A DNA stretch of 64,000 bases, taken from IMG/VR virus record IMGVR_UViG_3300050501_000057. One strand, given 5' to 3'. Below, piece by piece: positions 1,216 to 29,129 of the stretch (position 1 is its first letter; each line of letters begins with the position of its first letter). The DNA is from a virus. The notes beneath the pieces were generated by a model that saw nothing but the letters and a program-made list of their open reading frames with translations, made no database searches and was not told where the DNA came from. A program made the translations under genes and the position numbers.

Positions 1216-3414
1216 CTACCTTCTGTTAGCGCGTTCTCTCGCCAGTTTAAATACTCTGTCTCGCCTGCCGAGTCCTTGATTCTCCGAAGCAAGACGCTCT
1301 TTCAATCTATTTTCGTTGATATACATATTACGTGCGAACCAAAGTCTAGCACGTTCCTCCATATCGTGTTCCTTCAGAGCTTCCTCGGTGCGGTACTCTT
1401 TGGGTAACATCGCTTCCATTCGTTCTTGTGGTGATAACTGAGCTATCGGGGGAAATGTTATCGCCATACACCGTAAACAGTCCATAGCGTCATCGAACAT
1501 CTTCTCCGGTCTTTGTCGGCGTACTGGTTTACCCGCCTCACTCTTCGGATAGTGGTACACACCGAACTCTGCTCGCAGGCGCGCAAGACCGTGATCGTCA
1601 CTACCCGGTCGAACCTGCCATTTATTCGTGTACCTATCGAAGTAGCATTCACCCTGATTGTCGTCAACGACGATATAAATATTCGGACGACCTTTGATGA
1701 ACGGCGCACCCGTGGTTCTGTTTATTCTGAATGGATGTGGTTGATGAACATACTGAACCTCAAGATAATCGCGTACCTGTGCAATACCGCCGTTATAGTC
1801 GGTATCCCACGCTTTGTAGTACAAGTTATGCTCCTGCTCATAGGTGTCGCGCTCCGACAAAGCTTCGTGAGACATCAACTCATCTATCATTCTCGCTTGT
1901 TCGTTTTCGGGGAACTGTAATTTGTGTACTTCCTTAGCGACCGCCCGCACCGTGGAGTGCGGCGGCGCGGTGTACATCCGATACACAAATACACTACCGC
2001 TGATGTCTATTCCGTGTGTCCTAGTCGTCGTACCTTTCTTGGCAGTAGCGAACCACATTGTTATGTTAGCGTGCTCTCCCCCGCTATCGCTGCTCCCCCA
2101 ATCGTGCGCTCTACCAAGATTCCAATCGGTCGGTATTCTGAAATGACGTTCTCCGTCGTCGTCTATGCGAATAGCTCCCGCGATCTCCCGCATAAAATCG
2201 CTCTTGGTGATTACGTGATAAACCTCGTTGTAATGCGGGTAGACCTTCCCTGGTTGCGAAGCGTCGTAGTCAATATCCAACTCCTGAGCGACCATCTCAG
2301 GCGACATACGAAGCTTCTGACCGGCATACCATCGAGCATCTTTGAACGGGTGTTTAGTCCAATGGAACGACCGAACAGGTATATCTCCCGCGAATCGAAG
2401 CTGCGCAAAATGATTCAGCTTACCTTTCGGCGTACTGATAAACAATCTGCTATTCGCCGACTGCGTTGACGCCGTGTAAGAGCTAACGTCCTGCTCGATT
2501 GAAGCGTATTCGTCAAAGAATATGACGGTGAACCGTCCAGACCTTCCAGTCTCGGCGTTGGCAGTTGTCCCGGTTATTGTGGATTTATTCTCCGGGTTTA
2601 TCACCGTCATATAGGTCATATGCTTCTTCGAGTCGAACTCTGCCGGGAGCATCCACGAAGGAAGCAAACGAATTTGACTTCTGATCTTCTCGAAGATCGT
2701 ACTAGCGACGTTCGCCTTGTCTACTTCATCGGCGCGATAGCTAGTAATCAACGCCTCGAACTTTGTACCCTCACGAGGGAATAACCAGTAGTAGACGAAC
2801 ATACAGACTATCAACCAAGTAACGCCCATATCGCGCGACTTATCTATCAGTCCGTCAGACCGCATCGTAAATATCAGTTCGTCTATCCATTGAACCGACT
2901 CTTTTTGAAACTCGAACAACTCGAAAGGGAAGGTGTACAAGAGAGAGTTACGAGGATCTACGATCCACGCGTAATTCTCGAACCAGTACATAATGTCATC
3001 CGCACATTTCTTCATCTCTTCTTTTTGCTTCGCGGGAGATTTGAGCAATTTGAAGAGACGTTCCTTGCGGCGAAAAGCTTCTTTAGACGAACGCCGGATA
3101 AGTTGTTCGAGTGACCACTTGCTGAATTCCAGGTAATCAACTCTTACGCCGGTTTTGAAATCTTCGGGAGCGTCCTTCTTCAGCTTATCTATCGCCTTGT
3201 TTACCTTCTCGAACTCTCCCGGAATCTTCGCGGGAGCATCTAAACACAGGTCCAATGACGCGAACAGCGCCGCGTCATTGGACGACATAGAAGCATAGGT
3301 CTTCGCGCGAGTCTTCAACTCCCGCAACTTGAGCTTCAACCGGAGAAGGTCAATATCCTCTTTCGTCGGAGACGAGTTTGTTATTTGCTTTATTGAAAGC
3401 TCTTCGTATTTCAT
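1216..3414 (-). CDS. terL: Terminase large subunit
   Basis: Walker A-like DKSRDMGVTW, GRSGR, Walker B IFFDEYA, coupling motif FISTPKG, C-terminal nuclease motif DDAMDCLR. Confidence 0.93.
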   Translation of the reverse strand: MKYEELSIKQITNSSPTKEDIDLLRLKLKLRELKTRAKTYASMSSNDAALFASLDLCLDAPAKIPGEFEKVNKAIDKLKKDAPEDFKTGVRVDYLEFSKWSLEQLIRRSSKEAFRRKERLFKLLKSPAKQKEEMKKCADDIMYWFENYAWIVDPRNSLLYTFPFELFEFQKESVQWIDELIFTMRSDGLIDKSRDMGVTWLIVCMFVYYWLFPREGTKFEALITSYRADEVDKANVASTIFEKIRSQIRLLPSWMLPAEFDSKKHMTYMTVINPENKSTITGTTANAETGRSGRFTVIFFDEYASIEQDVSSYTASTQSANSRLFISTPKGKLNHFAQLRFAGDIPVRSFHWTKHPFKDARWYAGQKLRMSPEMVAQELDIDYDASQPGKVYPHYNEVYHVITKSDFMREIAGAIRIDDDGERHFRIPTDWNLGRAHDWGSSDSGGEHANITMWFATAKKGTTTRTHGIDISGSVFVYRMYTAPPHSTVRAVAKEVHKLQFPENEQARMIDELMSHEALSERDTYEQEHNLYYKAWDTDYNGGIAQVRDYLEVQYVHQPHPFRINRTTGAPFIKGRPNIYIVVDDNQGECYFDRYTNKWQVRPGSDDHGLARLRAEFGVYHYPKSEAGKPVRRQRPEKMFDDAMDCLRCMAITFPPIAQLSPQERMEAMLPKEYRTEEALKEHDMEERARLWFARNMYINENRLKERLASENQGLGRRDRVFKLARERANRR

Positions 3415-4152: not shown

Positions 4153-7100
4153 CTATTCGTCTGATAATCCCGCCTTGATGATCTGCGAGTACTTGCTTGA
4201 TATCCTATTTTTGTATTGCTTCTTCTGTTGCGGCGTTAGTGTCTTGTCCTTCTCCACGTCTGCTCTCTGTTTCCATTTGTCTAGCGTCAGGTTGACGATT
4301 TCTTGTAACTCGGCGTCACTCACCTTCTCTCCCGTTTTAATCGCTCTCCGAGCGAGCGCCGCCGAGTCATCAAGAATCTCTTTACGTTCTTCCACCGGAG
4401 CAGTGGAAGGGTACTTGGTATCGTTGACGAGTTCTGTAAACACTCTGTCAATCAATACCTGAGTTTGTTTCTTACGCGCTTGGAAGTCCGCGACAGATTC
4501 ACCCTTCTTCGTATCGCGCTTCGGCGGAGTCATTGACCATCCAGTCTTCGCCGCTTCCTGCGTTACCGCGTTAGTCGTGTCCTGCTTTGTATTGAACGGG
4601 TCGAATCCGAGAGGTTGCTGAAGCTCCCGACCGAACACGTCAGTCTTAGCGGGTAGCGTCTGTCTATTGAAGTTCGGATTCAGCGGCGTCTTAGGTAAAC
4701 GCGCTTGCACTTCCTTCTTGATTGACTCTTTCAGACCTTCGCCCTTCTGCTCACGCTGTACTTTGTCTTGTACCGCCGCAGCTTCGCTCACAATCGCCGG
4801 TACTAAACTACCCGCGCCTATGAGTCTCTTCGCGTAGCTCTGCGCCTGCTTCGGATTCAAGAACTCGTCTGCGGTACGCGCCATCGGTAGACCGTCAGTA
4901 ACGAGCGTGCTAAAGAGTCTCAGATAAGCATCCACCCTAGTATTTTCGCCGGATAGTTCCTTATTTTGCGCACGGAACGCTGATGCTCCCGCGAGCATCA
5001 TCGTTCCGATTGGGGAGATAGCGCGAATATCAATCCAATGATTGCCGAGCTTCATATGTCCCGGTCCTGCGCCTTGAGCTATCCTGCGCTGTCTTTCCTT
5101 CTCGTCTTCGTCGCCGAATCCGTACATCAATCCAGCGGCGGCGAGCTTGTATCCGATGATAGAAAGAGTCAGACCGACCAGACCTCTACCGGCAGCTTCT
5201 ACTATTGCGGCGCGTGTGTCCGGGTCGTCAATCGCTTTCCAAGCTTTCTGCTTCAGCTTCTTGAAGTCCGCCTTGCTTATATCACGAAGCGTTTCTTTAC
5301 TGAGCGCGGTTGTAGCTTTAACAGCACTACCAATGAGAAGGTAATCCATTGTTTGAAGAAATATGTTGCTACCCGTTTTGATAAACGGGAGTTCGTAGTC
5401 GAGAACATATTTGATAACCTCCGACCGATTACCTTTCCATCGCTGGTATCCGGTATTGATGAAGTTGTCGTTCTGGAACACGGCGAACTCCGCAGCGCGC
5501 CACGCCATATCACTTTGAGCGACTGTTGGATTAGCTAGAACGTCGGCGATCTTTCGTCCGCCGTTCTTGTTCTCCAACCACGCGACCTCATACATAGCGC
5601 GGTTGTACGCATAAGTTCTGAACACCGCGTCCTGCGCCGCCTGGAAGCGAAACACGTACTTTGCGAAGTTCCCGACCGTAGCGTTGAGGACTCTCGCTCC
5701 CGCCTTACCTCCGGTCATCCACGACGGCGTAACGTGTGGATCGTATCCGAGATTGAATGTCTCATACGTCGCTCCGGTGTTACCCTTTACTATCGTATCC
5801 TTGAACGCCTTGAATCCTTCGGGAAGACTCTTTATTCCGTTCCATATTCCTCGCGCTGATATACCTTGTACGGTTCTATCCTTATCGGTAGACATCAGCG
5901 ATAACGCCATATCAAGCGGCGTAGCTCCGCGTTTCAATTCTTCTGCGATCAGATGCGCCAAGTTTGATATGCTGTTACGACCAGCGGTCTTGATACCCGA
6001 AAGCATTCCCGCTCTACGAGCGTTGAGTAAGAACTCGAAGATGTTCATCGAGCTTACGTTGTCAACGAAGTTTTGCAGATCATCAATAGCTTTATCGTGC
6101 TCAGTCTTATTGGTCGCTCTAAAACCTTGTTGCAGCAAATTGTAGAGGTCGCTCTTCTCGTTCTGATCAAGAGGTTCCCCCTTCGCCCATTCCGCGTGTC
6201 TCTCCCATTCCTTCGCGTCGTAAGTCAGAAGCTTGCGGTTGATGATCTGTTTGCGCGAGGTCGCCGAAAGACCGATGCGCGCAGGTAGCGCCATTTGTCT
6301 TACGAAGAAGTTTTCGTTTTCGTGTTTCGCCTGCTCACCACCCGCTATTCTGATTCGATCACCCATAGGCGACGACGCTTGAAAGTCGTTGATAACCTTA
6401 TCGCGGACTTGTGCGGCGCCGCTGATGTCCGCGACCATCTCTTTACTTACTTGCTTCTCCGCCGCTTGAGCGAAATCAATCGTACCGCTGTCTTCCGCTC
6501 CCGCGAGTTTCCAAATGTCTTTCTCGGAATACCAGAGAATAGCTTGCACATCTGCGGGAGTAATTTTGTTCTCGTGTCGTTTGTTATACTCGTTCGCTAT
6601 TCCCTGCATTGCGCCGCGAATGATGTCTCCATCCGTTCCGTTTACCGGCGTGTCCTGTGTTCCCTTCGGTGTAGTCGGATTGAGTAGACCGCCGTTGAGA
6701 CGATAGAACCAGCGGGACGCCCACATATCAACCGTAACAAGCTGAGAGAATCCTGCTATGTTGAGGAAGAATGCTCCGATCTTCGGACCTAAGACTTCTG
6801 TCGCTTTGTACGGATCATTCTCCGTGCTACCAGGAGATAACAGATATTCAAACACCCCGCCTATGTGACCGTACTTCTCAATCGCTTTCTCAAGCTCAGG
6901 ATCTTTCTTGTACCATTGCTGCGCTCCGTTGATCTTCTCGAACTCGTCAGTCTTCTTCAGTTCAACACCCTGCTTCTTCAGTTGCTTCTGTTCGTAGCTC
7001 CCGACCGGGACATACCCTTGCGTCAGAAAGTTGAACTTCTCAAGCTGTGGACCGAAGCGACCGTAGTTACTGCGCTCGACTATTTCACCCTTTTCTTTGT

Positions 7101-10100
7101 AAATAGTCGGAGTCTTCAGTTTAGTCGGGTACACTCTGTCGGTACCGTCTCTTCCAAGCTCGAACTCTTCAATCATTCGACGCCAGATATCCACCGCATA
7201 TTTATAGTTTTCCCTGACCTTGTTACCCTGTGAACTCATCGCAAGCGTAAGGTCGAACAATGCTCTCAACTGCGGGTGGTTCATCACCTCCGGGAAAGCT
7301 TGACCGGTAATCTCGTGCATCTTCTTGATTGACGCCGCGTACCAGGAAAGACCTGTATCCTGCTCTCCTTGTCGCTGACCCTGACCGCTCAAAGCTCTAC
7401 GCACTACCGCCAATCCGTCGCGCACAGCACGGCGCGCACGGATGGCGTTAGCGTCTTCGTCGGACAGTTTCTTGGTAGAAAAATCACCATATATTTCTGC
7501 CGTAGTTCCTTGTAAGAAATGCGCGACAACTATGTTTTGATTCTGTCCGATCTTGTCTTGATTGTTCATCAACCAATCGTGGAGATCGTTAGTCGTCGCC
7601 TTCGCTCGCTGCGTGAAGCTCTTCTTATACAGGTCGGTCAATTCCTGAATCTGTCTCTTCTCCGCCGCATCCTGCTTACGCTTCGATTGATAGACATCTC
7701 CGACGTTAAAAGTTACAACACCATTCGGAAGCTTTACTCTCACGCCGTCAGTTACGTCGAACTCGACTTTATTTTCTCGACTATAGTTCTCGCTACCGAT
7801 GCGACCGAGAGTAGTATTGCGAGTGAAAGGCGCTCTATAACTTCCCGAATCACCGATAAGAACACGACCAGTCTTATACCTTGCTCCCAATCTGATAGCG
7901 TTAGCGATGTCGAATTGAGAGTTGAGAACAATAAACACGCCGTCGTTAGCATCATAGGTTTTGTACCCCATCGAATTAAGCTCACGCTTCAACGCCTGAG
8001 TACGTCTCTTACTTCCTCCCGTCATTACGGCGAAGCGACCATCAGTAATGACCTTCTTCGCGTCACCGACCGTAACCGCGTCTCTGTCCTTGCGGTTGAT
8101 CTCGATCAACTTGCTTTCGACCTTATCATCTGCGGTGACAGCTTTCGGTATCTCTCCCTCGAATCCGTTGTCTATCGGTTGCGTGCGAAGGTCGCGGAAG
8201 TTGGATGAAGTAGTAGATAGAACCAGCGAATTAGGGTCTTTCTCAAATTTCTTCGATTTCTCTTCATTGCGTTTATCCACCTTTCTCAAAAAGCTTCGTT
8301 CTTCTGGATTGAAATCTCCGTTATTAAATGGCGACTTCACTTGTTCTGGTTTCCACACGATGTAATGTTCAGTGAGCATACCCCGGTCGTCGTACTTCAC
8401 ATCTTGCATAAAGCGCATATCGCCGAAGTATTCGTCAGCTATCATCTTCACGCCGTCGAATCCTGACGCTTCTATAGCTCTGCGAAGTATCTCCCCATTC
8501 GGAGAGGTTCCAGGTTCGATAACGTCGAAATCGAGGTATTCTTCCATATAACTCTCGATCATCGCGTCTTTCGCTGCATCGAAAGCTTGTCTATGGGTAA
8601 CGCTCCCGCCTTCGTACCAAAGCTCATCAGGTAAATTCTCTATGAACTTCGCCTTGACCTTCTCCGCCATAGCAACGTCTGTGAAATCGTTTACTGCTTC
8701 ATAGAAGTTATCTATAAAGTCAATGAGTGTACCTGTAGGTTCTCCCGTTTCTAGTTCATCAGCACCTTCTTCGGAAATTACTTCAACATCAGCGTGTAGG
8801 CGCTTCTCTCGCGGAACATTCTTACTGATGTCGAATAAATTCTTTGCGCTGATATACGCGGGGATTACGACTACTTCAGCTTTACCCGTCATCTCGCGCT
8901 TGATCTTATCTCTAAACAAGTCGTCGTCTTTGAGTTCTTGTATCTGTCCTTCCAGGTCTTCGCGCTCTTCATCACTCTCGGCGTCTTCCAACTGCGAGCG
9001 CAGTTCATCGAGTTGATACTCTCGCTCGCTCTCCGAATTCTCTATTCTGGACGAGATTCTATTAGTCAAATCCGCGCCGTCGTGACCATAGTTACCTGCG
9101 GCGTCACGCGCGTTTGTGCTGAAGTAGAACGCCTGACCTACGAAGTTCTCTATGCTGGCGTTCTTCTTATTGAATATCTCAAAGTCGTGAGTAGTTCCGT
9201 GATACGTGATCAGCGGAGAACCATCTTCGTCAACGACCTCACTATCTCCGAACCACTTCTTGAAATTCGCTTCACGGGTGTTTACTTCTTCACGATCACC
9301 TCGCGCTACCGCTCGCAGAATATCAGACACAGGATTCGTGCGAACCGTCACCGAGTTGAAGTAGTCCTTACCGATCTTGAGCAACTTCTCCCGCGCTTTG
9401 TCGTTTAATTGGTTCGCATTATCAATTCGATGCGGAAACACTCTTCCCGTATCCACGAGTTCTTTTAGAACGTCGTGAAACTTTTCGAGTCGTAGTTCGA
9501 GAAACTTATCCCTAAGCTCTTCGATAGATACTGGACCTTCGCCCTTCGTTAGCTCTCTAACGCCGGTGAAGAGTCGGTCTGCTCTTGTTTCTTCGGCGTG
9601 GAGGATGTCTCGCTGTCCTTGAGGTACTGCTTTGCTTGGTCCTTTTTCCCCGACCTGACTAGCGCCAGCACCTTTGCCAACCGCTTTTGCGCGAACTGCT
9701 TGTTTCGGTTCTTCATTTATATCTCTCCGTGACGCCTCTTTCATTATGGCGTCGAAATTGATCAACGCGTTTTCCGCGATGGTCTGTATGTCTTCGTTAG
9801 GGAATGCGTTGTTTAGCTCACTAGCTACTTCTACCAACGCGTCGTAGAGCAAATCGGGAGAAACGCCGAGGGAATCGTGATCACCCGTAGCTCCGTATGC
9901 GAGCACTTCTTGTAAGAAGTCGCGGGGATTTATATCCGTGAACTCTTCCCGAATAGTTTTGTCTTTTGAGGTCTGTAAATCGTTTAGTAGATTTCTAGTC
10001 GCGGTTCCGTCGCGGTAAAGGCGACGGATCGCGTCATCAGATACTTGTTTATCGAGAGCGACCGTGTGTATAGCTTCGTGCGCTCCTGCTACTGCGGCGT

Positions 10101-13100
10101 CATCATTCCTCACAGGGACTATCGCCGCTCCCGCGCGACCTTCAGCGGCGTTTTCCAACTGCTTCGCCACTCGTTTTAAACCCGCTTCGCGGAGTTCTTT
10201 TGCGATCTGAGGTACTTTGTCGCCTTTTACGGTGAGTCCTCTGTCTACTGACACCTCTAAAGCGTCCTCAATGGCGCTTCTAGCGTTGTCATTGACGTAA
10301 ATTACACCGTCCGCCCTATGAGACGCCTGCTTAGTCTCGGAAAAGTCGCCTAAACCGAGTTTTATGCGAATTCCGGTAGGTAATTTGACCTTCCCGGAGG
10401 GCGTTAAACGGCGTTCTTTGACTGTTTCGACCTGACTACGATCAACTTCACGCGGAGCATTCTCTCCCGCGACCTGGACAGTCAATCTGTCGCCATTTTC
10501 TTCGAGAATAGCGACCGGTTGCTGACTATTCCGCATATACCCGCGCTGAACCTGTTCTGCTTCGCGTCTACGGTACTCGTCAATAAGGAAATTACGCGCC
10601 TTCTTGCGCTCTTCAACGGCGTTGCGGAGTTGTTTCTTCTTCTCGTCAACAGACAGCTTGCTATTTTGCACTCTTGCCGTCGTAGTTTCGTAATTAAGGT
10701 CTGCTTGGTCCCACTTCGCAGCGATATCCTTCGGAAGAGTAATCCCCACTCGACCTACTTTGACCTTCTTCTCACCCTCTTTGATACTCTTCTGTTCCTT
10801 CTGGTACTGCTCTGAGGTCGTCTCAGCTTCCGCCGCTTCTTCCGCAGTCTGCGCAGTAGCTACTTTTCCTTCTTTCGCTTCTTCGAGAAACTTTCCGACC
10901 TCCCGCTCGTTCGCTACAAGCTGCGGATTCGCCTCAAATTCCTTGTTGGTCATACTCTGAATGGATGCCGAGTAGTCGCCTGTCTCTCCGGGAACAGTCG
11001 GGGTCTTCGATGGAGCGGCGAAGTTCTCGCCGATCACCTTCGCCAACGCCTGTTGTTCCTCAGTCGTGAGCTTCGATACTCTCTCGAACGCCGCCTGAGC
11101 GAATTCACCCTCTGTAGTTCCCTGAATCTTCTTCACGAAGCGCCGGTCAGCTTGTCTGAACAAGCTTCGGATCTCTTTCTCGTCGGTCGTAGCAAGCTTG
11201 TCATACGCCGACTCAAGATGACGCGACTCAGTGTCGGTCAACGAAGCTTCACGCTCAGCTTGCTTCTGTTCTCCCGCGCTTAGTACGACCCCGGATTTGG
11301 TATTGCTGGATTTTTCCCCGGTTTGTACTTTCGCTGCTTCTTCGCCGGTTTTGCTTCCTGCTTCTTGGGAGACGCTTTCCGCTTCGCTGCTCCCTCCTTC
11401 ACTTCCGCGTGGTGTTTGAAGTACTCCACTTGCTGAAGTCGGTTCACCGCTTCTTCCTTCGACAGATTCGGTTTCGATAGGTTCTTCCCCGACTCGCTCG
11501 TCACCTTGTACCCCGCTGACGTTTTCTTGATCATTGGTCTTTTCTCCCGCCGTGACTAGCTTACCCTTCTCCATACGAACGGTTTGCTCGCCACGTAAAT
11601 ACGCCGCTGTCTGCTCCGCAGTCATCTTAGGAAGAGCTACCTTCCCGACGCCTTTGAAGTCATTCAACGCCGAATCAAAGTCTTCGCTGGTCATAGATAC
11701 GAAAGGTATTCCACCTTTTTGCGCTTGCAATGCGTACTTCAGAACCAACGGGTGTTGTGGATCAATCTCCACAAGACTAACGTTCTCTCCCTGCTTAATA
11801 ACTCCCTGGAAGCGTATTTGTCCGTCTTCTCCCTGCGTCACGCCGAGAAAAGAACGTAATTCAGTAGGAACCGAACCACCTTCACCAACACCCTTCATCT
11901 GGTACCCTCCTTCGTGAGTACCCTTATGCGATCCTTCTCCCAACTCGAACGCCGCTCCGATAATCAAATTACTGAGCGCGTTCTCCCATTGAGGTACCTG
12001 ACCTTTAGCAATCTCTACGAAAGCATCTCCCGCGACTTCACCGATTCCGCCGCTCGCCATAGCTCCGCCTTTCGCGGCGAGTAACCCTACATCCTTCCCC
12101 GCGATCAGTCCTTTAAACGCCGTACCGAATGGAAGCTCTACGATTGATGACGCCACGGATTCAAGGAATTGATCCATAGGTTTGTCGGCGTCGCGTATTG
12201 CAGTGCTGTATATCAATCCTGCCGGTCCCATAACCGCGCCGCCCATCATATACACGGGAGAATAGACCACTTCCTTCATTGCTGCTTCCGCCATACGAGC
12301 GACGAAGCGACGACCCGAAGGAGTCTTCGCTTCGAGCGCGCCTTTTAACAAGCGAGCTTGCATCGCCTCCCGCGCTTTCTGACCTACGTACTCTCTTTTA
12401 CCCTTCTCGTCGGTGATAGCGTCAACGAGCGGAGCTTCTACGATCTGCTCGATGTTCATACCAGTACGCAACAGTTCGTTGATACCTCTCGCGGTACCTC
12501 TCTTGATCGCGTCTGTTAAGTCTTCGGTCAGCGTCTTCGGATACCTGGCGTCGAGTTCCGCTTGTAGCTCCGCCGCTCTTACGTCGTCTTTCGCCGCTTT
12601 CGCTTCTGATATCGCTTTCGAGTACTCTTCTTCAGCTACTCCCCGCTCGCTGTCTGCCATCTCCTGACGCATTCTTGCCGTTTCTCTCGCGTATTCACTA
12701 ACACCACCTTTAGCGAGAGCATTTATCCTATTCACTACCCAATTCTGAACCGGAACGTTACCTTCCGCGATAAACTTGTCTCCGACCTGACTGATGCGCA
12801 TAGCTCCCGACTCTATTTGACGCTTCAACCACTTCTCTCCCTCGTCAGGATCTAGGAATTCTCCCGGATTTTCCCCGGTCGCTTGTCTGAACGCCGCTGG
12901 AAGAGACGTATCTCCCGTGAGAGCGATAGTAACTGCGTCTCGTACCTCATCAGCGGTCAAATGCGGATTACCTTGCGCGTCTTTCTTTATCTCGAATGTC
13001 ACTGGAACGCTTCTATTGATCTTGTGCGGATGACTCGCGGGAGTAACTACGCCCATCTTTCCGCGTATCTCTTCATCGAGAGCTACCATAGCAGGGTCTA

Positions 13101-13989
13101 CACCCAACTTGTCTATGATAGCTAATCCCCGCTGCGCTGGATTCATCTCCATCAGCTTCTTCATCTCAGGATCATCGAGCGTACCCTTACCAATCGGGGA
13201 GCTTTCTTTCCCTTCCACGCCGGTTTTGGACTCCTGCGATGGAGGAACTATCAACCCCTCGTTAGCAGTATCGTACTTCTTAGCAAGCTCTTCTTCTGTT
13301 AATAGCGCAGGGAGATCGCTCCCCGAAGAGCGATCTCCTGCGCTCAGGTATTGTTTCAGATAATCAAGACGTTCTTTTGTATACTCCCTGGTATTGACCT
13401 TACCGTCTGATACATCAGGTACACCGTCTTCTCCCTTATCAAGCGATTTGATGACGTTCCCTCTTCCCGCGTGGTATGCAGCGAGAGCAAGAGCTATCCT
13501 GTGATCCTGACTTTGTACTCTCTTGTCCTTACCAAGTTCGTCATAGTCAGTACGGAGGTTCTTTACTCCCGCCATAAACTTGTAATAGGGATTCTGAAAC
13601 TCTTCGTCAGTGAATCCGAGTCCTTTTGCAGTCTTCGGGAGTACTTGCATTCCCCCGCTCGCTCGCTGACCTTTGGGAAGCTTACCGTATGTACTCTCTC
13701 CCTCTTCCAAGTTTCCGCTCGACTCCCCGCGAAATACGCTCTTCCATATCCCGCGCCACGTATTGTCATCGAGGTCGGAAGGTTTGTAGTGCGCAGCGAT
13801 ATTGTCGAGGTCAGTATCCTCGTCTCCGGTGAGCGTATATCCGTTTGCTGTACTGGTAGTGTCACCTCCCGATGGTCCGGTACCTTTTTTGGTACCCCCT
13901 CCCGCGTTGCTGTCTACTAGCAACTCGTCGGTGGTCGTGGGTGCGTCTGATGGAACGGAGAGTGCTCTTTTTTTAGGGTCGGTTGCCAT
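4153..13989 (-). CDS. Giant polyvalent internal virion/ejection protein: lytic transglycosylase, HExxH, ART-like, glycosylase-like and C-terminal helical domains
   Basis: 3278 aa. SLT motifs GESSG / ASGGMQVLPKTA / ALAAYHAG; GAHEAIH; NFKKWFGDS..PLITYHGT..FYFS; GPKIGAFFLNI..VTVDMW..VQAILW. Confidence 0.85.
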   Translation of the reverse strand: MATDPKKRALSVPSDAPTTTDELLVDSNAGGGTKKGTGPSGGDTTSTANGYTLTGDEDTDLDNIAAHYKPSDLDDNTWRGIWKSVFRGESSGNLEEGESTYGKLPKGQRASGGMQVLPKTAKGLGFTDEEFQNPYYKFMAGVKNLRTDYDELGKDKRVQSQDHRIALALAAYHAGRGNVIKSLDKGEDGVPDVSDGKVNTREYTKERLDYLKQYLSAGDRSSGSDLPALLTEEELAKKYDTANEGLIVPPSQESKTGVEGKESSPIGKGTLDDPEMKKLMEMNPAQRGLAIIDKLGVDPAMVALDEEIRGKMGVVTPASHPHKINRSVPVTFEIKKDAQGNPHLTADEVRDAVTIALTGDTSLPAAFRQATGENPGEFLDPDEGEKWLKRQIESGAMRISQVGDKFIAEGNVPVQNWVVNRINALAKGGVSEYARETARMRQEMADSERGVAEEEYSKAISEAKAAKDDVRAAELQAELDARYPKTLTEDLTDAIKRGTARGINELLRTGMNIEQIVEAPLVDAITDEKGKREYVGQKAREAMQARLLKGALEAKTPSGRRFVARMAEAAMKEVVYSPVYMMGGAVMGPAGLIYSTAIRDADKPMDQFLESVASSIVELPFGTAFKGLIAGKDVGLLAAKGGAMASGGIGEVAGDAFVEIAKGQVPQWENALSNLIIGAAFELGEGSHKGTHEGGYQMKGVGEGGSVPTELRSFLGVTQGEDGQIRFQGVIKQGENVSLVEIDPQHPLVLKYALQAQKGGIPFVSMTSEDFDSALNDFKGVGKVALPKMTAEQTAAYLRGEQTVRMEKGKLVTAGEKTNDQENVSGVQGDERVGEEPIETESVEGRSGEPTSASGVLQTPRGSEGGSSEAESVSQEAGSKTGEEAAKVQTGEKSSNTKSGVVLSAGEQKQAEREASLTDTESRHLESAYDKLATTDEKEIRSLFRQADRRFVKKIQGTTEGEFAQAAFERVSKLTTEEQQALAKVIGENFAAPSKTPTVPGETGDYSASIQSMTNKEFEANPQLVANEREVGKFLEEAKEGKVATAQTAEEAAEAETTSEQYQKEQKSIKEGEKKVKVGRVGITLPKDIAAKWDQADLNYETTTARVQNSKLSVDEKKKQLRNAVEERKKARNFLIDEYRRREAEQVQRGYMRNSQQPVAILEENGDRLTVQVAGENAPREVDRSQVETVKERRLTPSGKVKLPTGIRIKLGLGDFSETKQASHRADGVIYVNDNARSAIEDALEVSVDRGLTVKGDKVPQIAKELREAGLKRVAKQLENAAEGRAGAAIVPVRNDDAAVAGAHEAIHTVALDKQVSDDAIRRLYRDGTATRNLLNDLQTSKDKTIREEFTDINPRDFLQEVLAYGATGDHDSLGVSPDLLYDALVEVASELNNAFPNEDIQTIAENALINFDAIMKEASRRDINEEPKQAVRAKAVGKGAGASQVGEKGPSKAVPQGQRDILHAEETRADRLFTGVRELTKGEGPVSIEELRDKFLELRLEKFHDVLKELVDTGRVFPHRIDNANQLNDKAREKLLKIGKDYFNSVTVRTNPVSDILRAVARGDREEVNTREANFKKWFGDSEVVDEDGSPLITYHGTTHDFEIFNKKNASIENFVGQAFYFSTNARDAAGNYGHDGADLTNRISSRIENSESEREYQLDELRSQLEDAESDEEREDLEGQIQELKDDDLFRDKIKREMTGKAEVVVIPAYISAKNLFDISKNVPREKRLHADVEVISEEGADELETGEPTGTLIDFIDNFYEAVNDFTDVAMAEKVKAKFIENLPDELWYEGGSVTHRQAFDAAKDAMIESYMEEYLDFDVIEPGTSPNGEILRRAIEASGFDGVKMIADEYFGDMRFMQDVKYDDRGMLTEHYIVWKPEQVKSPFNNGDFNPEERSFLRKVDKRNEEKSKKFEKDPNSLVLSTTSSNFRDLRTQPIDNGFEGEIPKAVTADDKVESKLIEINRKDRDAVTVGDAKKVITDGRFAVMTGGSKRRTQALKRELNSMGYKTYDANDGVFIVLNSQFDIANAIRLGARYKTGRVLIGDSGSYRAPFTRNTTLGRIGSENYSRENKVEFDVTDGVRVKLPNGVVTFNVGDVYQSKRKQDAAEKRQIQELTDLYKKSFTQRAKATTNDLHDWLMNNQDKIGQNQNIVVAHFLQGTTAEIYGDFSTKKLSDEDANAIRARRAVRDGLAVVRRALSGQGQRQGEQDTGLSWYAASIKKMHEITGQAFPEVMNHPQLRALFDLTLAMSSQGNKVRENYKYAVDIWRRMIEEFELGRDGTDRVYPTKLKTPTIYKEKGEIVERSNYGRFGPQLEKFNFLTQGYVPVGSYEQKQLKKQGVELKKTDEFEKINGAQQWYKKDPELEKAIEKYGHIGGVFEYLLSPGSTENDPYKATEVLGPKIGAFFLNIAGFSQLVTVDMWASRWFYRLNGGLLNPTTPKGTQDTPVNGTDGDIIRGAMQGIANEYNKRHENKITPADVQAILWYSEKDIWKLAGAEDSGTIDFAQAAEKQVSKEMVADISGAAQVRDKVINDFQASSPMGDRIRIAGGEQAKHENENFFVRQMALPARIGLSATSRKQIINRKLLTYDAKEWERHAEWAKGEPLDQNEKSDLYNLLQQGFRATNKTEHDKAIDDLQNFVDNVSSMNIFEFLLNARRAGMLSGIKTAGRNSISNLAHLIAEELKRGATPLDMALSLMSTDKDRTVQGISARGIWNGIKSLPEGFKAFKDTIVKGNTGATYETFNLGYDPHVTPSWMTGGKAGARVLNATVGNFAKYVFRFQAAQDAVFRTYAYNRAMYEVAWLENKNGGRKIADVLANPTVAQSDMAWRAAEFAVFQNDNFINTGYQRWKGNRSEVIKYVLDYELPFIKTGSNIFLQTMDYLLIGSAVKATTALSKETLRDISKADFKKLKQKAWKAIDDPDTRAAIVEAAGRGLVGLTLSIIGYKLAAAGLMYGFGDEDEKERQRRIAQGAGPGHMKLGNHWIDIRAISPIGTMMLAGASAFRAQNKELSGENTRVDAYLRLFSTLVTDGLPMARTADEFLNPKQAQSYAKRLIGAGSLVPAIVSEAAAVQDKVQREQKGEGLKESIKKEVQARLPKTPLNPNFNRQTLPAKTDVFGRELQQPLGFDPFNTKQDTTNAVTQEAAKTGWSMTPPKRDTKKGESVADFQARKKQTQVLIDRVFTELVNDTKYPSTAPVEERKEILDDSAALARRAIKTGEKVSDAELQEIVNLTLDKWKQRADVEKDKTLTPQQKKQYKNRISSKYSQIIKAGLSDE

Positions 13990-25164: not shown

Positions 25165-25469
25165 AGGTGAACCTCATTTTGTCTAGTCTATTTGAAAAAA
25201 TCTGTCAAGTCTTATGTCGGTCGTCTATACGAACAACTTCTTCAAAACAGATTTTTCGATCAATGTTGATAAGGGTTCTAGCGGTCGTCTCCACAAATGG
25301 CGTAGAAAAATATTTTTCAAGCACCTTTGACTCATATCATTCATACCGGAGAACCCCCTCTTAAAACGCTTCTAAACGCGAAATCGGACTATGTAGCGTT
25401 CTACAATGATGCTTGCTGAACCATATAGTTAAGTGACTATCTAATATGGTTCTATCAACATCATTTATA

Positions 25470-26572: not shown

Positions 26573-26750
26573 TAGCTGTATACAAGTGTCAGTCGGGAGG
26601 TTCAATCACTCATTCCCCGGCGTAATTTGGTAAACCCTCCCGGAACCTTGCATATAAGAATTTTTCGGAGTAGTTTTATACTGGTCGCGGACAAAGAAAG
26701 AAAAGGTTCCGCGCAAAAGAAAGAAAACGAAAAACAAAAGAGGTTCACCA

Positions 26751-27319: not shown

Positions 27320-27966
27320 CGTCGGTGATGGTTATTTGATAAATCGTAGGTCGAGAAAGTCGTGGCGACGGTCTTAGTCAGAAATGGTCAACGCCGTCAG
27401 TAAGCGCCGGAAAGGATGGACGCCAACGACGAAGGGTAGACCGAAGCGGTGACTCGCATACGCTAGCGCGAGAGAAGCAACAGGTACGCTAGCAGGTGCG
27501 AGGGCGCGCGGAAAACATAACGGGTTATCTTCACACTGAAGAGTTATCAAGAGAGGTTCACACCGTTGAGGCGAGGGAGCGCAAAGCTCCCCGTACAACA
27601 ACGTCGCTCCAATCCGTAACGCAGAAGACGCCAACCAACCATCGCAAATTCCCTCAAAAGGAAATCCATAGTTGAGCGCGTAAGTAAACGTTGAGCGCGT
27701 AATTGCTGTGCGGTTGTTGAGAATCCTCCGCTTAATAAGGCATCGAAGGAACACGCGTTGAACTTGCGATTTCACTCACCGAATTTTTAGGGGAGGATAC
27801 GCAGTCAACGAGCGGTGCGCTAATTAAGTCGCAAACACCCGAACAAAGTATCGTGCGTATCAACAGAAGGACTCTGCATATAGCGGACAATCCGAAGTAG
27901 TTGGTAGCTGCGCCCTCCACGTTCAATCTACCGCGAGCAAGACATTTCTTGCGCTGACCTTTCAGG
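27320..27966 (+). ncRNA. Large structured leader RNA, copy B
   Basis: About 640 nt with no credible plus-strand ORF; many stems; blocks homologous to copy A. Confidence 0.7.
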
Positions 27967-28024
27967 TCCAACTCATAACCAAACGCTTTTATGACCTGGA
28001 TAGTTACCGCAAGAGTCTTGAGCG

Positions 28025-28138
28025 GTTCAAGGATTGAATAGAAGGTACCGACCTGACCAGACAGCGGACTCGAAGCGACATATACTAAGCTTCCTCTCCG
28101 TAGGACTCCACACGGTACCTTCTGTTGAATCCTTGAAC
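28025..28138 (+). ncRNA. Structured RNA cassette 1 (26-bp closing helix)
   Basis: GTTCAAGGATTGAATAGAAGGTACCG pairs with CGGTACCTTCTGTTGAATCCTTGAAC (one G-G, one G-U). Confidence 0.6.
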
Positions 28139-28146
28139 GTTCGTAG

Positions 28147-28287
28147 AGGATTGAATAAAGGCGCTCTATTGACCTTCCATTTAATGCGGGTTCGAGTCCC
28201 GCCATTCTGATAGTAGCTAACGCGAGATCGGGATGTGGCGCCGAATGGTAAGGCGGATGGAAGGATCGAGCGTCTTTATTCAATCCT
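28147..28287 (+). ncRNA. Circularly permuted tRNA mimic (YrlA/Y-RNA-like topology)
   Basis: Order is long helix, T-arm (GCGGG-TTCGAGT-CCCGC), closed acceptor stem (CATTCTG/CGGGATG), D-arm (CGCC-GAATGGTAA-GGCG), long helix. Confidence 0.8.
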
Positions 28288-28302: not shown

Positions 28303-28383
28303 GGGGATTGTGTGTGTGTGTAGTTGCGAAGGGATGCGCAACGCCGGGATGTTTGCTCCTTTCTACCCGGTCACACAATCCCC
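28303..28383 (+). ncRNA. Structured RNA cassette 3 (12-bp closing helix, two internal hairpins)
   Basis: GGGGATTGTGTG/CACACAATCCCC encloses the GTTGCG/CGCAAC and CCGGG/CCCGG hairpins. Confidence 0.55.
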
Positions 28384-28416: not shown

Positions 28417-28620
28417 ATGTTTGAGAAAAGAAAAATAAAAAGACTAGAAGCGGATCTTGCTCGCTTCAATAGAGAGCTATTGAAGTTATGCAATGAGTAC
28501 AACGAGATCGAGGAAGGAAGCGGTCTTTTTAAATCGCTAAAACTTAAAATGAAACGCGCAGAAATAAGAGCGAAACAGCAAGAGGTTGTAAACACGAGAG
28601 CAAAGCTTGGTATGGATTGA
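28417..28620 (+). CDS. Small coiled-coil protein
   Basis: 67 aa, RBS GGGAGGT. Confidence 0.7.
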   Translation: MFEKRKIKRLEADLARFNRELLKLCNEYNEIEEGSGLFKSLKLKMKRAEIRAKQQEVVNTRAKLGMD

Positions 28621-28698
28621 TCAGGTTTCCTTGTCGTCGGAAAAGTACAAAGAAGACGACATCTGATTAAGTGGTCATCTTGGTACCTACATACCACT

Positions 28699-28843
28699 CC
28701 CGCATTGAATACTTCGGGAGTATTCACGTCCGTTGGAGGTTCGAGTCCTCCCGCCTGCGCAGCGCGCGGACGTAGCTCAATGGTAGAGCGCCGGGATTGA
28801 AACCGGAGGGTGACGAAGTTGGTTCAACTCCTAACTATGCGGG
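28699..28843 (+). ncRNA. Second permuted tRNA mimic, opened in the variable region
   Basis: CCCGCAT/ATGCGGG closes a T-arm (GGAGG-TTCGAGT-CCTCC), hairpin acceptor, D-arm (GCTC-AATGGTA-GAGC), anticodon-like arm and a second T-loop hairpin. Confidence 0.7.
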
Positions 28844-29129
28844 TTCAGAATCTTGCGGAGATTATGCGGCGAATAGCGCCGCTAATCTCCGCGTCAAGTT
28901 ATGGGAGTGTTGGTCTGGCGGGTACCGGAGCGAAGTATTTTAGAACCTACTTCGCTTGGTCGCAAAACTCGTGTCATCACTCCCGCCGAATGTAGCGTCA
29001 ACTTTAAAACGAAAGAGAGACGGGTATTAAGCACACTCGTTATGAATCACCGCAAGGCGTGTATCTCTCCGTACACAAGTATTGTGTAAAGCTGTTCGCC
29101 TTGATTGTTGGCGCTACTTGATATTGGTC

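Follow-up and report, generated by a model that had tools for sequence, protein, structure and literature searches.

A predicted two-headed tRNA-mimic RNA with a YrlA-like inner body in the non-coding cluster of an uncultured tailed phage

The stretch of DNA analysed here, in the following called the window, comprises 64,000 nucleotides of the IMG/VR virus record IMGVR_UViG_3300050501_000057. It is part of the genome of an uncultured tailed phage and encodes a terminase-like gene, a family A polymerase, a primase-helicase, an RNA ligase and an endonuclease VII. A 61,493-nt contig of run X1 begins 6,260 nt upstream of the window, so that the genome has a size of at least 70 kb with at least 6.3 kb outside the window. 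No close relative of the phage was found in IMG/VR. With the RNA ligase of the window as query no IMG/VR locus was matched, and an alignment of 14 primase-helicase sequences led to six loci with 26-30% identity, none of which contained a match to the covariance model of the RNA described below. Among the best 15 matches listed for each protein, cultured phages reached at most about 29% identity to the polymerase and about 36% to the terminase. On the minus strand a polyvalent protein of 3,278 aa with transglycosylase and ART-PolyVal domains is encoded (4153-13989). The motif GAGGTTCAC occurs nine times in the window, often 5' of an ATG, twice in locus L192 (see below) and ten times in the 850 kb of the other loci, so that its density is about 12-fold higher in the window than in the latter. 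It is located a few bases 5' of ATG at 26741, 30469, 30645 and 33871 on the plus strand and at 25174 on the minus strand, and is perhaps an unusual ribosome-binding site and a hint at the host.

Two ordinary tRNA genes were identified in the window by ARAGORN, and no part of it matched an Rfam family at the gathering cut-offs. The region between approximately 27.3 and 29.4 kb is a non-coding cluster in which long hairpin RNAs and tRNAs follow each other over 2 kb, and it contains the 145-nt element of this study; the RNA ligase gene is located 5 kb from the element. The element region is almost completely present in two rhizosphere metagenome runs, X1 and X2, from which the window may stem; none of the runs listed for it is an RNA run, which speaks neither for nor against expression. 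Further long-stemmed hairpin elements are lined up in the cluster (27947-28014, 28025-28138, 28303-28383, 28857-28890 and approximately 28903-28985). The RNA at 28147-28287 (plus strand), counted as the first permuted mimic in the first-pass annotation, is a plain YrlA-shaped RNA with a 23-bp terminal stem, a T arm, a long closed acceptor and a D arm; it scores 26.4 bits with the Rfam YrlA model, lacks the 5' Ro-binding motif and has an 11-nt stem sequence in common with 28025-28138. In a close strain, represented by one contig of run X3, most of a 67-codon ORF upstream of the element (window 28434-28603) is swapped for 162 unrelated letters while the flanks are retained. This strain covers only 28603-28755, with two changes, both outside the element, which are too few to count.

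The element could be divided into the following features, given together with the corresponding parts of the only full homologue found, locus L192 (2485-2636, minus strand, on a phage-like contig of 3.8 kb), and of a partial copy on a contig of run X2:

28699..28843, plus strand: putative two-headed tRNA-mimic RNA gene, 145 nt (predicted fold; same eight helices in L192)
28699..28705, plus strand: 5' strand of P1, the outer acceptor-like helix (7 of 7 pairs with 28837-43; five to six pairs in L192, one changed on both sides)
28706..28726, plus strand: P2, 8-bp hairpin with the loop TCGGG (8 of 8 pairs; in L192 loop TAGGG and seven of eight pairs changed on both sides)
28727..28730, plus strand: 5' strand (CGTC) of P3, the variable-arm stem linking the heads, paired with GACG at 28812-15 (L192: 4 of 4 pairs in the model alignment, 6 bp by hand)
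28731..28734, plus strand: linker ending in U48, the Levitt partner of A15 (A15:U48 in the window and in L192)
28735..28751, plus strand: T arm of the inner permuted tRNA body (5 of 5 pairs; inside the YrlA match)
28752..28772, plus strand: inner acceptor closed as a hairpin (3' strand 28752-58, loop 28759-65, 5' strand 28766-72)
28773..28790, plus strand: U8-A9, canonical D arm (28775-89) and G26 (identical in L192, though this stretch belonged to the search pattern)
28791..28806, plus strand: anticodon-like arm, a CCGG hairpin of 4 bp with an 8-nt loop and no readable anticodon (ARAGORN after re-permutation)
28807..28815, plus strand: variable-loop linker (28807-11) and 3' strand of P3 (28812-15); the same nine letters stand behind the arm in the loose end of the X2 contig
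28817..28836, plus strand: second T arm, loop 28823-29, with a 1-nt bulge in the stem (predicted fold; a perfect 5-bp T arm in L192)
28837..28843, plus strand: 3' strand of P1, behind which no CCA is encoded (sequence)

All helices, T loops and hairpins named in the first-pass annotation were recovered at their places in the sequence, the pair lists and the fold; the YrlA identity of the inner part and the second, tRNA-like outer head had been missed. In the inner body the signature bases of a tRNA are in place, namely U8, A9, A14, A15 with U48, G18G19, A21, G26 and the TTCGAGT loop. The inner acceptor forms six of seven pairs in the window (with G3-U70 and an A5-C68 mismatch) and all seven in L192; in the window it is extended by two more pairs past position 1, leaving a 3-nt loop. 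Together with the 8-nt anticodon loop and the bulged second T stem, the A-C mismatch is one of three defects of the window copy. The outer head is a four-way junction of P1, the GGG-loop hairpin P2, the joining stem P3 and the second T arm, and in the predicted fold the order of its helices mirrors that of acceptor, D, anticodon and T arms. The GGG loop of P2 is likely a stand-in for a D loop. It is equally readable as a Pro-type anticodon loop, but the stand-in is preferred since L192 and the loose end of X2 would give the anticodon AGG with G38, which is unusual in bacteria. A third T-like arm with an 8-nt loop is possible at 28839-56 and would compete with P1.

At -57.2 kcal/mol (z -2.1), the minimum-energy fold of 28699-28843 corresponds to this layout, and 4 of 200 shuffles reached an energy at least as low. 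Re-permutation in silico, the check proposed in the first-pass annotation, turned the inner body into a tRNA for ARAGORN (score 109.7, anticodon unassigned); the linear, unpermuted sequence gave no tRNA call, and the linear acceptor forms only two of seven pairs, in the window copy and in L192 alike. By itself the closed acceptor is a weak argument, since six of seven cross-acceptor pairs are also reached by 7 of 94 ordinary tandem tRNA pairs. With the core of the window copy fixed, P1 to P3 arose together in 8 of 20,000 shuffles and in 39 of 20,000 random 45-mers of the window; across all control sets the number lay between 8 and 64 of 20,000, and the chance of all three outer helices is 0.04-0.3% per copy, in a test designed post hoc. 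An alternative 8-bp helix (28726-33 with 28766-73), proposed earlier as a switch, is indeed present and energetically favoured in the window copy (duplexes of -12.7 vs -4.7 kcal/mol; pair probability 0.76, whereas P3 and the outer acceptor pairs reach about 0.2), but as a switch it is not conserved, L192 having 5 bp there, mostly G-U. It weakens the model for the window copy, because tertiary contacts must outweigh it. In a context of 900 nt the pair probability falls to 0.03 for P1 and 0.23 for P2, and a rival fold of 28808-97 takes up the 3' strand of P1; since P1 is outcompeted in this energy model, the fold needs an RNA that is excised or that folds during synthesis. On energetic grounds the second T loop could belong to a separate RNA at 28808-97; this was rejected, as in L192 both P1 and the second T arm are retained and a tRNA gene follows immediately. 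The minimum-energy fold of L192 departs from the model (-67.6 vs -66.4).

Locus L192 was obtained with a search pattern of T loop, D arm and second T loop, which yielded 83 metagenome and 18 viral loci, 79 of them distinct. Six of these had no upstream tRNA call and at least six of seven cross-acceptor pairs, and one of the six, L192, has the layout of the window, although acceptor pairing and the three outer helices were absent from the pattern. It comprises the outer helix, the 8-bp hairpin, the variable-arm stem, the T arm, the 7-bp closed acceptor, the D arm, the anticodon arm and the second T arm. A covariance model built from the window alone scored L192 with 70.4 bits and the best of 187 other loci with 45.7. 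In the alignment of window and L192, which consists of two rows fitted to the model, 85 of the 88 cells are paired, and both partners are exchanged in 15 of the 44 pairs; controls with slid partners were paired to 39-56%. A descriptor scan over 1.03 Mb enriched for T and D arms revealed 88 permuted cores, 45 of them with a second T loop and eight rows without a linear acceptor of their own, and among the 88 all three outer helices were found only in the window and L192. The layout shared with compensatory changes supports the earlier claim that the element is a mimic derived from tRNA, opened in its variable arm and equipped with two T loops. Two ordinary adjacent tRNAs in related phages, named at the outset as the observation that would speak for simple decay, were not what the sole full homologue contained.

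The anticodon arm of L192 has 5 bp and a 7-nt loop with CAU. After re-permutation ARAGORN reports a tRNA-Met(CAU) with a score of 122.5, and the anticodon stem carries three G-C pairs, which we take to be the signature of initiator tRNAs. A tRNA-Pro gene starts within about 8 nt behind the element and thereby bounds it, and a polynucleotide-kinase phosphatase domain is encoded approximately 0.7 kb away; within its 3.8 kb the contig shares no proteins with the window. The partial copy is a 238-nt contig of run X2 (one record, depth 3.5), which matches 28733-95 with three changes and five gap positions. Its loose ends of 19 and 30 flanking letters contain a GGG loop before the match and, behind it, a similar hairpin, the same linker and the start of a second T loop, so that the sequence gives partial support to the two-headed layout. 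The anticodon loop differs in all three copies (8 nt in the window, CAU in L192, shorter in the X2 contig), and therefore decoding is not the conserved property. The G3-U70 pair, taken earlier for a determinant of alanyl-tRNA synthetase, is present in the window copy; alanine identity itself is unsupported because L192 carries C3-G70, with G4-U69.

When 15 whole records and 99 loci were searched with a model of both copies, no additional member came up, the best scores being 48.5 and 51.6 bits, respectively; the 1.03-Mb descriptor, and neither covariance model, covered L157-L179 and L305-L308. Family-specific patterns gave no matches in viral, metagenome and genome contigs, and two further patterns gave 24 and 4 loci, all of them tandem tRNAs, plain YrlA-like RNAs or chance matches. 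BLAST matches in the Erythrobacter phages XM05 and vB_EliS-L02 turned out to be ordinary tandem tRNAs, and in plasmids BLAST matched D arms only. We conclude that the two-headed layout is real and probably under selection, the weight of the finding being limited by its two full sequences.

With a relaxed threshold, the best Rfam match of the element is YrlA (RF02553; 28711-812, 35.8 bits, E 3e-5, gathering cut-off 69), and L192 scores 32.9 bits. The cut-off of 69 bits is a weak test, because YrlA-like RNAs beside the TROVE gene of phage CcrColossus also score only 30-42 bits. Judged by its sequence, the inner part, made up of T arm, loop-closed acceptor and D arm, is the YrlA module: the order of T arm, loop-closed acceptor, UA and D arm, the Levitt pair and the near-identical D and T sequences are common to both, and YrlA also occurs in phages. 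YrlA is reported to fold into the L shape of a tRNA (bioRxiv 10.1101/312249; Wang et al.), held by U8, A14, A15:U48, G18G19, A21 and T-loop contacts (bioRxiv 10.1101/312249). YrlA is, however, opened at the anticodon arm and has a long Ro60-binding stem instead, whereas in the element the opening lies in the variable arm, an anticodon-like arm is retained, and a second T arm and an outer helix are added, so that the ends close a four-way junction and no long terminal stem. The 5' motif GNCGAAN0-1G and a Ro60 gene nearly always within 4 kb are described for YrlA (PMC4201824; Chen et al. 2014). Near the 5' end of the element this motif is absent. Its single match, GACGAAG at 28812, was rejected as a Ro-binding site, for it lies on the wrong, 3' side, the motif occurs at chance frequency (138 matches in the window), and none was seen by eye at the equivalent place in L192. 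Neither the 59 proteins nor the 1,137 six-frame segments of the window include a TROVE/Ro60 gene (best E 0.37). As four of five tested YrlA features fail, the element is kept apart from YrlA.

The YrlA module itself is, by sequence, common in phages. A strict T-gap-D pattern matched 28 loci in IMG/VR, 16 of them permuted by eye; TROVE was encoded in eight of the 16 permuted-core viral records (seven above the cut-off), in six of the eight within 3 kb. A looser pattern gave, in a 1/64 sample, 133 distinct matches, of which 19 had a tRNA call on neither side; at least six of seven acceptor pairs were formed in 16 of these, all of which lacked a second T loop. In many phage YrlA-like RNAs the "V arm" resembles a true anticodon arm, with Asn, Lys, Phe, Gly, Pro, Ile and Arg loops by eye (L001, L003-L006, L008, L020, L028, L081, L141, L165 and others), as it does in some rows of the published YrlA alignment (PMC4201824 supplement). 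One of the eleven rows there, from Chondromyces, contains two D arms and two T loops and is by eye a pair of ordinary tRNAs (PMC4201824). Unannotated YrlA-like RNAs were further observed upstream of the TROVE gene of Caulobacter phage CcrColossus (L322; 966-1079, 1468-1577 and approximately 1666-1742).

The conserved surfaces of the RNA are, as far as the aligned copies tell, the T and D elbows. Because neither an identity signal nor an anticodon nor a Ro60 handle is conserved, we favour, at about an even chance, a non-decoding two-headed imitation of tRNA that would bind host proteins recognising tRNA shape. The RNA would be excised from a long non-coding transcript of the cluster, the inner body would form an L shape as YrlA does, and the GGG loop of P2 would dock on the second T loop and create a second elbow. 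Host proteins directed at tRNA, most plausibly defence nucleases that cut tRNA or other readers of the elbow, could then be bound and sequestered by the two elbows, which would spare the real tRNAs during infection. RNA-repair genes near both copies would fit a conflict over tRNA, a weak argument, as such genes are common in phages. The RNA probably originated from two tRNA genes in tandem that exchanged the partners of their acceptor strands, a swap that divergence could fix; duplicated tandem tRNAs with two perfect acceptor pairings (L193, L202, L206, L216) point to this route. More tentatively, and with a clearly smaller probability, the element could be a complete permuted tRNA with a second elbow on its variable arm. 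Opened by RNase P and supplied with CCA, it would become a two-piece tRNA that can be charged, and its second head would capture proteins directed at tRNA or form a bridge between them; these may be defence nucleases, modification enzymes or the ribosome. It would then represent a Ro60-independent, RNA-only device for counter-defence or translation control and a distinct RNA class hidden as a mis-called tRNA.

A related reading, an unlikely one, is that after a cut by RNase P in the acceptor loop and the attachment of CCA the two halves remain paired as a chargeable tRNA-like RNA, which with its huge variable arm would bind a synthetase, EF-Tu or the ribosome. Cutting by RNase P and the attachment of CCA are reported for M. 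smegmatis YrlA with its 7-bp acceptor (PMC4201824), both copies here have a 7-bp acceptor with G1-C72, and the tRNA-Met call for the re-permuted L192 agrees with it; yet the identity signals differ (C3-G70 and CAU in L192 as against G3-U70 in the window), no anticodon can be read in the window copy, a CCA is not encoded, and the two extra pairs carry the window acceptor beyond position 1. On the decay reading, the element would be what is left of two adjacent tRNA genes that degenerated or recombined, its pairings being due to chance, or else a mimic that once worked and now decays. The 3' two-thirds do read as a linear tRNA body (Rfam tRNA 20.3 bits; L192 41.1), the best BLAST match is an ordinary tRNA-Arg/tRNA-Phe pair of the Erythrobacter phage XM05, and the cross-pairing tandem tRNAs and the three defects of the window copy point the same way. 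The same eight helices with compensatory changes in L192 make the decay of two adjacent tRNAs rather improbable, however, as do the poor linear acceptor in both copies, P1 to P3 being intact and covarying, and the low chance frequency of the outer helices.

Two further functions appear improbable. As a Y RNA, the element would tether Ro60 (Rsr), encoded by the host or outside the window, to a nuclease such as PNPase, and a phage Ro60 with Y-like RNAs is described to bind the PNPase of its host (PMC12135203). YrlA as the best Rfam match, TROVE in half of the same-core viral records, the sub-cut-off scores of the RNAs adjacent to TROVE in CcrColossus and the part of the genome outside the window would be in line with a tether, against which stand the lack of TROVE in the 64-kb window, the motif occurring only on the 3' side, the missing long Ro-binding stem and the lack of TROVE in the records with anticodon-joined two-headed RNAs described below. 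As a punctuation or stability element, its heads would direct cuts by RNase P, RNase E or exonucleases that release and protect neighbouring RNAs. This would suit its place within the 2-kb run of hairpins and tRNAs and the position of the L192 copy directly before tRNA-Pro, and protection by a tRNA fold is one of the roles proposed for YrlA (PMC4201824); a single head would suffice, though, the two loci have different neighbours, and signals of their own are present in real tRNA genes.

The factor that binds the conserved D and T stems is an open question in the YrlA papers (PMC4201824; bioRxiv 10.1101/312249), for which a two-headed RNA would be a direct test case. Mimicry of tRNA by phages is documented for YrlA-type RNAs partnered with Ro60; if a two-headed form lacking the Ro60 handle is conserved, the tRNA-shaped module would be shown to be able to work alone. 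If it is a decoy, it would be an RNA-only counter-defence against tRNA-cutting immunity. Since ARAGORN labels L192 2487-2564 (minus strand) as tRNA-Met despite its unpaired linear acceptor, tRNA counts of phages can include such mimics.

Circularly permuted tRNA genes of red algae and archaea have a bulge-helix-bulge junction and a circular intermediate, and their transcripts are circularised and then cut back into working tRNAs. The element resembles these genes (mentioned in PMC10085705) in that the 3' half precedes the 5' half and that the inner body scores as a tRNA when re-permuted, with a complete 7-nt anticodon loop in L192 and not in the window. Unlike in the algal and archaeal genes, the ends lead into a second conserved head, and the Pfam matches of the window include no splicing endonuclease. 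A bulge-helix-bulge motif was not seen by eye at P3, and none of the observations hints at circular intermediates. In two-piece (permuted) tmRNAs, too, the T arm and the 3' acceptor strand precede the 5' acceptor strand. This strand order is the same in the element, and G3-U70 is found in the window copy, though it is not conserved. The two-piece tmRNA (Rfam RF04321) consists of a tRNA-like domain without D stem and a tag frame, whereas the element has a 4-bp D stem, and it was neither called as tmRNA by ARAGORN nor matched by an Rfam tmRNA model at E up to 10.

Among the loci collected, many tRNA genes of phages or metagenomes were noted that are otherwise normal but whose anticodon arm is enlarged or resembles a hairpin and shows no clear anticodon (L180, L184, L191, L212, L220, L235, L249, L273 and others), and Bordetella phage PHB09 (L057, approximately 1502-1575, plus strand) carries an unannotated, ordinary-looking tRNA gene with a CAT anticodon by eye. 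No two-headed phage RNA was found in Rfam or in a targeted literature search of titles and abstract openings, which covered few subscription papers. Two-headed RNAs joined through the anticodon arm were detected at L024 (approximately 2960-3110, match strand) and in the group of L030, L031, L036, L040, L044 and L047 (approximately 2945-3100, match strand), a group whose six loci represent two distinct sequences; additional two-headed forms may be present at L214 and L265. In L024 and the L030 group split anticodon stems join the heads, and the RNAs are located inside large phage tRNA arrays, that of L024 ending in CCA; TROVE was found in none of the five records tested. Like them, the element has two T arms, an inner permuted body with closed acceptor and an outer acceptor-like helix. 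It differs from them in being joined via the variable arm, in keeping one anticodon-like arm and in the 8-bp GGG-loop hairpin that replaces the outer D arm.
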